DNA of 64,000 bases from an uncultured bacterium (lineage in GTDB: Bacteria > Acidobacteriota > Thermoanaerobaculia > Multivoradales > JAHZIX01), in contig CBDUPA010000006.1 of the NCBI GenBank assembly GCA_965368975.1, positions 160,001 to 224,000 on the forward strand. Reading direction: 5' to 3'. This document shows positions 57,317 through 58,162 of the stretch, piece by piece (the first letter of the stretch is position 1; each line of letters starts with the position of its first letter). The translations under genes were made by a program, and so were the position numbers. The notes beneath the pieces are model-generated. The model saw only the letters and a list, made by a program, of their open reading frames with translations. It made no database searches and was not told the DNA's origin.

Positions 57317-58162
57317 TCAGGTGTTGCCGTCGACGTTGACCACGATCTGCCGGCCGGCTTCGTCCTCGACCACCACGATGTAACTGCCACCGGCCGGTGC
57401 CGCGGGGTCGAGAATACGCATCATGCGCTCGTTCCGTGCCTCGCCGCCGGCGATCAGGTTTTGAGACCCATCGGCTGCCAGGCGGTACAGGCGGTAGCTC
57501 TGTGCCTGCATGCCCGTGGTGATCCAGGTCACTTCAGTACCGCCGAAAGTCGGAGTGGCGTCGAGGCCGACGACGCGGCCCTGACCATGGTGCGCAGGGG
57601 TACAAGCCGCCGCTGCCGCCGCGCTGTCGCCCGGGCAGCTGCTGCACAGGGAGCCGGCGCAGGCGCTCTGGCCGCACAGGGAGCCGGCACAGGCGCTCTG
57701 CGAGCACAGCGAACCGGCACAACCGCTGACGCCACAGGCGCTGCCGCCGCACAGGCTGCCACCGCAGGCACTGCCGGCGCAGATGCTTCCGGCGCAAGCA
57801 CTGCCACCACATACGCTACCGGGACAGGCGGAGCCGGCGCAGGCACTGCCACCGCAGCCAGAACCGCCGCAGGCGGATGCGGTGCAACCACTGCCGATGC
57901 AAGCGCTGCCGATACAGGCGCTGACGCCCTCACTGACGAACAGAATGGCTTCCTGGACGGGTTCAGCACTCTCTTCGGGAGCGAGCAGGGGCTGGTTGAC
58001 GTCCAGGGTCATCTCAGCCAGCTTGTCCGCCAGCTGCCGATCGAACAGCGGTGAATCCGCGACCGACGTCTCCGCCGGAACACCGCGGGTGGCTTCCACC
58101 GACACCATGGCCCAGGTGGCGGCGACGAGGATCAGGCTCAGGATTACGAGTTTTTGTCTCAT
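57317..58162 (-). CDS. Exported protein with 19 tandem S-x-C-x-x pentapeptides and C-terminal Ig-like domain
   Basis: Signal peptide MRQKLVIL...; RBS GGAGA; repeat SACIG SACIG SGCTA...SLCSS; C-terminal V.W.T......YRLYR...D......Y.V. Confidence 0.85.
   Translation of the reverse strand: MRQKLVILSLILVAATWAMVSVEATRGVPAETSVADSPLFDRQLADKLAEMTLDVNQPLLAPEESAEPVQEAILFVSEGVSACIGSACIGSGCTASACGGSGCGGSACAGSACPGSVCGGSACAGSICAGSACGGSLCGGSACGVSGCAGSLCSQSACAGSLCGQSACAGSLCSSCPGDSAAAAAACTPAHHGQGRVVGLDATPTFGGTEVTWITTGMQAQSYRLYRLAADGSQNLIAGGEARNERMMRILDPAAPAGGSYIVVVEDEAGRQIVVNVDGNT
57638..57922 (-). repeat. 15-bp-period coding repeat (19 x SxCxx)
   Basis: Counted directly from the translation. Confidence 0.9.

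Follow-up and report, generated by a model that had tools for sequence, protein, structure and literature searches.

A Ser-x-Cys pentapeptide tract protein and its linked pair of GIFT-domain membrane proteins: an undescribed cell-envelope system in several bacterial phyla

The 64,000-nucleotide stretch of DNA analyzed here (the window), from an uncultured bacterium of the phylum Acidobacteriota (NCBI assembly GCA_965368975.1, contig CBDUPA010000006.1, positions 160,001 to 224,000), contains a minus-strand gene whose product carries 19 consecutive pentapeptides of the form S-x-C-x-x, and raises the question of what such a tract is for, in which compartment it operates and with which partners. 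A reading made from the letters and their translations (hereafter, the sequence-only reading) had offered three answers: a beta-solenoid with a disulfide ladder, a high-capacity metal or Fe-S binding tract, and a substrate for Ser/Cys thioether cross-linking resembling ribosomally synthesized and post-translationally modified peptides (RiPPs). Here, we describe the gene, its family and its genomic partners, and find that the tract protein, together with two paralogous inner-membrane proteins with GIFT domains (g912 and g1193), constitutes an undescribed cell-envelope system that is present in several bacterial phyla. Its combination of a conserved leader helix with an SPLF motif, a Cys-every-fifth tract and paired double-GIFT proteins was not found described in the literature, where supplementary annotations may exist. 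On our tentative preferred account, the tract protein is a dedicated client of g912 and g1193; the membrane pair, the conserved leader, and the short and Rhs-fused forms of the protein all go beyond what the sequence-only reading had noticed.

The open reading frame (ORF) of the tract gene occupies positions 57317..58186 on the minus strand and encodes 289 amino acids (aa) in its longest reading. A 281-aa product from the internal ATG at 58162 is the likelier one, because a Shine-Dalgarno-like AAGGAG lies 8 nt 5' of this codon and the public gene call (P0002, 100% identical to the protein from the window) is 281 aa long. Numbered by the 289-aa reading, aa 89-183 (57638..57922, minus strand) consist of exactly 19 S-x-C-x-x units, which can also be read in the register G-S-x-C-x; the tract is real, its coordinates are exact, and it is far beyond chance. 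When the whole 7.13-Mb assembly is translated in six frames, it is the sole Cys-every-fifth run of at least 8 units, the next longest having 7, and the gene is present in a single copy. The tract is devoid of charged and aromatic residues. Its Ser residues draw on both codon families, with 13 AGY and 6 TCN codons (AGC 9, AGT 4, TCC 4, TCT 1, TCG 1), and its Cys codons are 13 TGC and 6 TGT. Tandem Repeats Finder detected only imperfect 15-, 30- and 45-nt repeats in the tract DNA, with 65-87% matches, and the units are therefore old, diverged copies held in phase, with no recent slippage. A scan for promoters and terminators gave nothing useful, and a search of sequencing runs listed no RNA run containing this DNA and DNA runs with small shares of 0.09-0.10 only.

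Relatives were retrieved with a word-indexed search driven by the tract, which yielded 76 proteins of 158-506 aa; a search aimed at shorter proteins added 14 short forms of 135-157 aa, with no protein named CefA (the RiPP precursor discussed below) among them. The set examined further consists of 77 proteins, namely, the protein from the window in its two start readings and 75 relatives. All 77 contain an unbroken Cys-every-fifth run of 12-31 units, a uniformity that is partly circular given the way in which the relatives were retrieved, and Ser stands two residues ahead of Cys in 81-100% of the units of each protein. When 1442 units of 76 proteins are pooled, Ser occupies position 1 in 98.3% of them and Thr in 1.3%, Gly fills position 5 in 68.7%, and the x positions flanking Cys are nearly all Ala, Gly, Val, Leu or Ile; such small residues throughout the units are as expected for tight packing. 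The x positions also follow a two-unit super-period, with autocorrelation of +0.18 to +0.29 at lag 2 and negative values at lags 1 and 3.

Comparison with four orthologs (P0004-P0007) sets the tract apart from the rest of the protein. Tract identity is 96, 86, 91 and 88%, respectively, and the x positions alone are 93, 77, 85 and 80% identical, versus 37-42% for the C-terminal FN3-like domain and 25-33% for the signal and leader part. By this measure, the tract evolves more slowly than any other part of the protein and is under the strongest constraint, one unit after another, which argues against a merely compositional disordered linker. Together with the two Ser codon families and the periodicity kept throughout the 77 proteins, this contrast upholds the proposal of the sequence-only reading that selection acts on the protein and that the periodicity is not a product of DNA slippage.

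The family comes in three architectures, all of which combine the leader helix with a hydrophobic junction and the tract. The long form, as in the window, ends in the FN3-like domain; the short form, of about 160 aa, ends in C-x-x-C and basic residues; and in the Rhs-fused form, represented by P0030, P0033, P0036, P0046 and a 1959-aa Rhs protein at locus L016, the junction and tract directly follow the end of the Rhs core. P0033 matches Rhs_assc_core with 58.5 bits (cut-off 32.5), and the 1959-aa protein matches RHS_repeat. The SPLF motif is discernible by eye in the long, short and Rhs-fused forms, and a strict regular expression finds it in 42 of the 77 proteins. Named sources include Myxococcaceae, Methylobacterium, Xanthobacteraceae, Planctomycetes, Akkermansia, Lentisphaerae and Candidatus Polarisedimenticolia. 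One protein of G194, a genome from the window's phylum, is identical to a protein placed by NCBI in Candidatus Polarisedimenticolia, by which Acidobacteriota would probably be the phylum of the window. Pattern scans of genome contigs gave 15 confirmed loci, 4 of them real (L015-L018), and those of metagenome contigs gave 9, with 2 real (L051 and L052). Eleven mostly actinomycete loci (L019-L029) were rejected as relatives, being either wrong-frame simple repeats or too fragmentary to call. In the search of the window's phylum, 7 of the 12 matching genomes had weak, repeat-only matches, and inspection of three such loci (L035, L037 and L039) revealed no ORF with a Cys run.

An AlphaFold2 model of the tract protein, built from a 23-sequence alignment, delineates the parts that flank the tract. 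An N-terminal hydrophobic helix (aa 5-33, 58088..58174), also found in relatives, could serve as a signal peptide or a membrane anchor, and by virtue of this helix the protein is predicted to be exported, in agreement with the signal peptide that had been recognized from the sequence. The SPLF leader helix follows (aa 46-60, 58007..58051; S-P-L-F/Y, R/Q-L, L/M), and then an acidic spacer and the hydrophobic junction (aa 76-88, 57923..57961) that leads into the first Ser-x-Cys; A80, S85 and S89 are invariant in the family alignment. Beyond the tract lie a C-x-x-C cap (C181 and C184), an Ala-rich linker and a conserved Cys-Pro (C195) (57587..57637), followed by a beta-sandwich (aa 201-289, 57320..57586) modeled with a predicted local distance difference test (pLDDT) score of 88-98. 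Its best Foldseek match is the FN3 domain FN3tt (7jgu; E 6.8e-4, TM-score on target 0.59), and FN3 domains of the phage lambda tail tip are also among the best matches, so the placement of the tract between an acidic spacer and an Ig-like C-terminal domain holds. Searches with the whole protein were less informative: Pfam gave no family at E<=1, pentapeptide-repeat models included; the family profile found nothing significant among PDB sequences once chance low-complexity rows had been set aside, the weak and non-significant alignments including one of about 72 profile positions (94-165) to the antifreeze protein 1eww (E 0.34) and one to 1l0s (E 0.39); and a language-model look-alike search with P0001 scored no higher than 0.80, every cluster that it recovered being unnamed. 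Lipobox-type lipidation of the first tract Cys was considered and rejected, as that Cys lies about 55 residues past the hydrophobic core of the signal peptide.

The partners of the tract protein are encoded directly downstream. On the minus strand, the gene order is g294, tract gene, g912 and g1193, with gaps of 0-21 nt between them and a 197-nt gap upstream. The product of g912 (54557..57295) is a 912-aa inner-membrane protein with about 10 transmembrane (TM) helices, a first GIFT domain, a TM hairpin and a second GIFT domain. Its paralog g1193 (51864..54560, about 895 aa; 29% identical to g912 over 231 aa) is contained in an ORF that remains open to 55445; its start was set at about 54560 by homology and gene order, with tblastn matches beginning at residue 234-322 of the long ORF. 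The two proteins both match the Pfam families DUF4350, ABC_transp_aux and IFT52_GIFT: with 34.7 bits against a cut-off of 30.4, g912 belongs to DUF4350, and g1193 scores 57.2 bits against DUF4350 and 39.6 bits against ABC_transp_aux. The pair is single copy in the genome. An exhaustive search placed 670 clusters, nearly all of about 800 aa, in the g912 family at E<=1e-30, and DUF4350 was matched in all 48 members scanned.

The AlphaFold2 model of g912, based on a 76-sequence alignment (pLDDT 87.6, predicted template-modeling score 0.90), has about ten TM helices in residues 22-338 and a TM hairpin at 618-664, with globular domains at 368-615 and 677-875. In structure comparisons of the model, both globular domains have the GIFT/GATase1-like fold. 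They match the N-terminal domain of IFT52 (5fms_A; VIA Z 21.4, root-mean-square deviation 2.3, 201 residues aligned), along with OST48 (6s7o_G, Z 18.0) and Wbp1 (6c26_B, Z 16.9), and the domains further resemble the C-terminal domain of site-1 protease (Z 17.6), ThuA-like proteins and the GH42 trimerization domain. Across 48 relatives, Lys and Arg together number 1.75-2.81 in the assigned inside loops and 0-0.73 in the outside loops, so that both GIFT domains of g912 are predicted, by the positive-inside rule, to face the periplasm, which is also where the exported tract protein belongs. The first GIFT domain has an acidic/His cluster in which H461, D485, D542, E564 and D587 are invariant and D460 nearly so; no catalytic family was recognized in either g912 or g1193. 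Exosortase clusters appeared at 0.75-0.76 in a language-model look-alike search with the TM domain, a lead that has no Pfam counterpart, since PF09721 (Exosortase_EpsH) was matched at E<=0.1 in 0 of the 48 family members. Prediction of a complex between residues 340-880 of g912 and residues 40-115 of the tract protein P0001 scored 0.00 against a mark of 0.32, which speaks neither for nor against binding.

The association between tract gene and pair holds in both directions. Starting from the tract, a g912-like and g1193-like pair follows in 6 of the 7 loci with usable flanks: L015 (Myxococcaceae), L016 (Lentisphaerae, Rhs-fused form), L017 (an alphaproteobacterium with two tract genes), L018 (Xanthobacteraceae), and the short-form loci L049 (genome G304) and L050 (genome G194). 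The seventh, L051, a low-GC short form from a metagenome, has no pair after the tract gene (1415-1950), which contains an in-frame TAG between signal peptide and leader where relatives have Ser, and may be a pseudogene, an error or a case of recoding. Its neighbors are instead a gene for an ABC-transporter membrane domain and one for an 804-aa protein with a weak, sub-cut-off radical-SAM match (27.9 bits). Starting from the pair, 6 of 401 sampled genomes of the window's phylum carry it, including the window's genome (G000), and a leader-bearing Cys-rich gene adjoins it in all six (G000, G152, G194, G304, G291 and G257), G152, an unpublished genome, being judged by coordinates only and the tract ORF of G291 being cut by the contig end. 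Counting the seeds, samples drawn around three other carriers contain the pair in 1 of 301, 2 of 401 and 1 of 401 genomes. Among the six non-seed genomes with the pair, five (G152, G194, G304, G291 and G257) thus have an adjoining gene with leader and poly-Cys.

The exception is G887, where a pair without a poly-Cys neighbor (L081, G887:C29 2647-8713) is preceded by a gene with a match to the O-antigen-ligase-like family Wzy_C (37.5 bits, cut-off 31.7), which may be a sign that the pair cooperates with machinery for glycan transfer. A distant client is that of G257, a 30%-GC genome of the same phylum, in which a 151-aa exported protein (L075, G257:C22 6800-7252) is encoded directly after the pair. 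It is rich in acidic residues and has kept the SPLF leader, the two leaders aligning in hhalign with a probability of 64% (E 6.4e-5, 30 columns).

The fourth gene of the operon, g294 (58183..59067, minus strand), encodes a predicted secreted accessory protein of 294 aa, and its stop lies 20 nt ahead of the tract-gene start or overlaps it. No match to g294 was found in Pfam or NCBIfam at E<=1, and its profile detected nothing significant among PDB sequences. Homologs adjoin long-form tract genes, L015 and L017 having two each and L018 a single one, and none were found beside short-form loci. On the plus strand, a Wzx-like flippase, an AsnB-type asparagine synthase and a GT4 glycosyltransferase (47035-51861) converge on the downstream end of the operon. 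Upstream, the minus-strand region 59265-61624 encodes a membrane protein with a weak match to the transglutaminase core (20.5 bits, cut-off 23) and, two genes upstream of the tract gene, the 387-aa protein g387, with a sub-threshold CopD-like match (20.9 bits, cut-off 32.1). Neither these two genes nor the sugar genes are conserved beside the other loci.

Our preferred account of these observations, put forward tentatively and as somewhat short of probable, is that the product serves as an extracytoplasmic scaffold, built as a Cys ladder and assembled together with the GIFT pair. After export, the tract, having no stable fold of its own, would be fixed as a narrow ladder, each turn of which takes up two pentapeptides, with Ser and Cys pointing inward, small and aliphatic residues outward, and Gly in the turns. 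Neighboring Cys residues would be joined by disulfides, a neighbor-to-neighbor arrangement that the oxidizing periplasm would favor, or else the same thiols would be bridged by soft metal ions. The GIFT pair would recognize the SPLF leader and the junction and would keep or assemble the product at the membrane's outer surface; the FN3-like domain and g294, a secreted protein, would be additions specific to the long form. The outcome would be a structural or binding rod of the cell envelope and not a diffusible radical-SAM peptide. We favor a ladder because the units consist of small residues, have Ser and not Thr at position 1, place Gly in putative turns, follow a two-unit period and are conserved unit by unit. 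These features call to mind the narrow antifreeze helices of insects with their disulfide ladders, and the weak, non-significant alignment to 1eww is a hint in the same direction.

Several observations weigh against the ladder. AlphaFold2 gives aa 76-200 a pLDDT below 50 (33-43 within the tract) and predicts no solenoid there, so that the beta-solenoid with a Cys ladder proposed from the sequence does not emerge from structure prediction, and we know of no solved precedent for a beta-helical turn of 10 residues. The retrieval of relatives by the tract itself reduces what their uniform period can tell, and the lag-2 period could stem from a history of 30-nt duplications and not from structure. 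Total Cys counts are odd or even without preference, an uninformative test for paired disulfides. The G257 client, in which 16 Cys, mostly in Thr-Cys pairs, are spaced irregularly by 4-8 residues, misfits a regular ladder and indicates that the exact period is not required for partnership with the pair. Scrambling of the Cys periodicity among homologs, which the sequence-only reading had regarded as fatal to its interpretation, thus occurs in this distant, partner-linked protein, and the 77 retrieved proteins all keep the period. Finally, two distant lineages have orthologous TlpA/ResA-like thioredoxins, with a CGPC motif and a signal peptide, whose genes overlap the second GIFT gene at its end (L015:16872-17441 and L017:16427-17002; Pfam Redoxin 58.5 and 49.1 bits). 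Thioredoxins of this class are reductants, a role more compatible with free thiols than with a ladder of disulfides.

A possible, if rather doubtful, alternative to the ladder takes up this last point: the tract would be a reduced thiolate array in the envelope, a metallothionein-like protein or thiol sponge for soft metals (Cu, Zn, Cd), sulfur species or oxidants, folding only around its ligand and anchored or loaded by the GIFT pair. The thioredoxins directly after the pair in L015 and L017 and the irregular Cys spacing tolerated in the G257 client both speak for it, as do the lack of aromatic and charged residues and the combination of strong conservation with a tract left unfolded by AlphaFold2, which is typical of apo-metallothioneins; the CopD-like match of g387 would also fit. 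This alternative leaves unexplained why position 1 is Ser almost to the exclusion of Thr, why Gly recurs at position 5 and why the phase is exact over up to 31 units, and the tract has no His or basic residue to balance the charge of the thiolates. Moreover, the thioredoxin gene is absent from the operon in the window and from L049, and genes for metal transport or metal sensing are not conserved among the examined loci.

Covalent modification outside the cytoplasm is a further alternative, which we consider unlikely. The tract would be a leader-guided substrate that the SPLF leader directs to the GIFT pair, each Ser-Cys pair being altered, for instance by O-glycosylation of Ser or by cross-linking of or attachment to Cys, in a RiPP-like manner without a radical SAM enzyme. 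Such a process would account for the exact 1:1 ratio of Ser to Cys in 19 of the 19 units here and in about 98% of the 1442 units, for the survival of hydroxyl-thiol (Thr-Cys) pairs in the G257 client despite its changed spacing, and for the conservation of leader and junction in the long, short and Rhs-fused forms. On the side of the partners, the acidic/His cluster in the first domain of g912 and the similarity of its GIFT domains to OST48 and Wbp1 are consistent with it, GIFT domains being proposed to bind sugars according to a review (PMC7226087), and glycan-related genes occur next to the pair of G887 (Wzy_C) and, on the other strand, beside the operon in the window. Against it stand the missing catalytic family in g912 and g1193, the non-catalytic nature of OST48 itself according to the same review (PMC7226087), and the lack of conservation of the sugar genes. 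Known Ser-dehydrating and thioether-forming enzymes need cytoplasmic cofactors. Neither LanM, nor LanKC/LanL, nor LanB together with LanC is encoded alongside the tract gene, as would be expected for a lanthipeptide precursor. The window's genome has nine LanC-like matches, several LanB-like matches and one YcaO, all on other contigs and none near the tract gene (the RiPP machinery is spread over contigs C13, C18, C9, C12, C1, C22, C41 and C27). Lanthipeptide enzymes could thus still act in trans in this genome; LanC-like genes occur in only 1 of the 5 other carrier genomes, which makes Lan-type thioether formation unlikely as a general route. The Ser/Cys thioether substrate envisaged by the sequence-only reading was not borne out, and heterocyclization as in thiazole/oxazole-modified microcins was set aside, the sole YcaO gene lying on another contig.

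A more far-reaching proposal, which we regard as improbable, is that of a new envelope pathway made up of the leader, the tract of hydroxyl-thiol units and the GIFT pair with its OST48-like fold, in which a ribosomally made protein is covalently processed, or templated by metal, unit by unit into a rigid Cys ladder outside the cytoplasm. If true, RiPP maturation would have a counterpart beyond the cytoplasm that dispenses with radical SAM, ATP and tRNA-dependent enzymes, and whose module is mobile enough for grafting onto Rhs cages.

The Rhs fusions also suggest a polymorphic-toxin-type payload, in which the tract would be an effector against competitors and the GIFT pair would protect the cell or export the effector. 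The tract is fused after the end of the Rhs core in five proteins, the fused form at L016 is still followed by the pair, and the distribution of the pair is rare and patchy (6/401, 1/301, 2/401 and 1/401 genomes, seeds included). We hold this to be very unlikely, given that most forms are simple, Sec-exported proteins with no delivery domain, that the tract is conserved and not polymorphic, that two membrane proteins of about 800 aa are unlike the small immunity proteins known, and that neither a type VI secretion system nor a PAAR domain was found in L016.

One library model points to a radical-SAM route. The sole NCBIfam or Pfam match of the window's protein is NF038108 ('Cys-every-fifth RiPP peptide CefA'), at 17.1 bits (E 0.0039), below the cut-off of 30 bits. 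Four of 13 other family members reach that cut-off (P0035, 40.4 bits; P0058, 35.4; P0011, 32.6; and P0044, 30.0), so that the CefA model senses the repeat without claiming the protein from the window. The association of peptides with Cys at every fifth position with radical SAM maturases, named in the sequence-only reading, matches the curated CefA/CefB pair and does not extend to this protein. A genome-wide search for the maturase gave a negative result: the CefB model (NF038107, cut-off 600 bits) is passed in 0 of 6 carrier genomes, the best scores being 142.1 bits in the window's genome, on another contig, and 50.3 bits or less in the other five. Two radical SAM genes of the window's genome, C13:107585 and C18:35246, score 142 and 121 bits against CefB, and none of its six SPASM matches reaches an equivalog cut-off, the nearest lying about 203 kb away on the contig. 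Among the window ORFs scanned with Pfam and NCBIfam (7 + 15, not every ORF), no radical SAM or lanthipeptide enzyme was found, as had been stated for the window as a whole. No relevant paper on CefA/CefB was found, and supplementary files may hold annotations. With a sub-cut-off score, no CefB, an export signal in front of a folded FN3 domain, and GIFT proteins in place of radical SAM enzymes as conserved neighbors, the reading of the tract protein as a CefA/CefB-type precursor cross-linked in the cytoplasm by a radical SAM/SPASM maturase is close to refuted; the tract protein is not a CefA/CefB radical-SAM peptide.

Further genes were noted in and next to the window. Two tandem 657-aa paralogs, each with a protease-associated (PA) domain, are encoded on the plus strand at 31300-33273 and 34029-36002. 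The gene cut by the end of the window (61628-64000, continuing to G000:C6:225398) encodes 1256 aa, and two large proteins encoded upstream of it at C6:226032-230526 have D-x-S-G-S-type motifs and look vWA-like by eye in their translations; they appear to belong to a separate system.

The wider relevance of the tract protein is fourfold. First, the GIFT/DUF4350 family, which Pfam lists as being of unknown function and which comprises the 670 clusters found here, gains a candidate client, and bacterial GIFT domains gain a protein partner that can be tested. Second, 19-31 exact pentapeptides that evolve slower than the adjoining folded domain are a case of extreme constraint that lies beyond current structure prediction. 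Third, establishing the state of the tract, whether a disulfide ladder, a metal wire or a modified polymer, would either extend the known repeat folds by a new minimal one or bring to light a protein chemistry new to the space outside the cytoplasm. Fourth, the NCBIfam CefA model can label exported members of this family as RiPP precursors, as the scores above its cut-off attest.

Several known systems resemble parts of this one. CefA, paired with CefB, likewise has Cys at every fifth residue over tens of residues, and its model is the only one in the libraries to match the tract. That model spans 65 positions, which together with its name suggests a short cytoplasmic precursor, whereas the protein from the window has 281-289 aa, its hydrophobic signal helix, a folded FN3-like domain and GIFT partners. 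The Cys-laddered beta-helical antifreeze proteins of insects (spruce budworm, 1eww and 1l0s) likewise have short repeats in which Ser, Ala, Gly, Thr and Cys abound and Cys recurs at a fixed period. In such helices, of the spruce budworm and also of the beetle type, an internal disulfide ladder is accompanied by inward Ser and Ala. Their repeats are 12-15 residues long, in contrast to 5 or 10 here, they present a Thr ice-binding face where the outward residues of the tract would be small or aliphatic, the profile match to them is non-significant, and AlphaFold2 predicts no helix of this kind for the tract. Pentapeptide-repeat proteins (PF00805), with their quadrilateral beta-helix, also repeat every five residues, position i-2 being small and the inward-pointing position i larger, a pattern onto which Ser and Cys may map; unlike them, the tract has a super-period of two units and not four, no Pfam match, and no secondary structure in its AlphaFold2 model, which is of low confidence over this part.

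Metallothioneins and Csp1, an exported, Cys-lined copper-storage protein, are similarly rich in Cys with Ser, Gly and Ala and free of aromatics, and metallothionein-type folding depends on metal; the tract differs from them in its exact five-residue phase, its invariant Ser and its lack of basic residues, and no sequence or structure match connects them. GldG, the N-terminal domain of IFT52, and OST48/Wbp1 share the GIFT fold with both soluble domains of g912, which departs from them in having two such domains behind about 10 TM helices, a paralogous partner and a poly-Cys client, in an operon that contains no ABC transporter, MoxR or DUF58 gene. The SPLF leader, the Cys-every-fifth tract and the double-GIFT pair were not found described as a combination, in which the repeat resembles that of CefA and the partners come from the widespread DUF4350/GIFT class.

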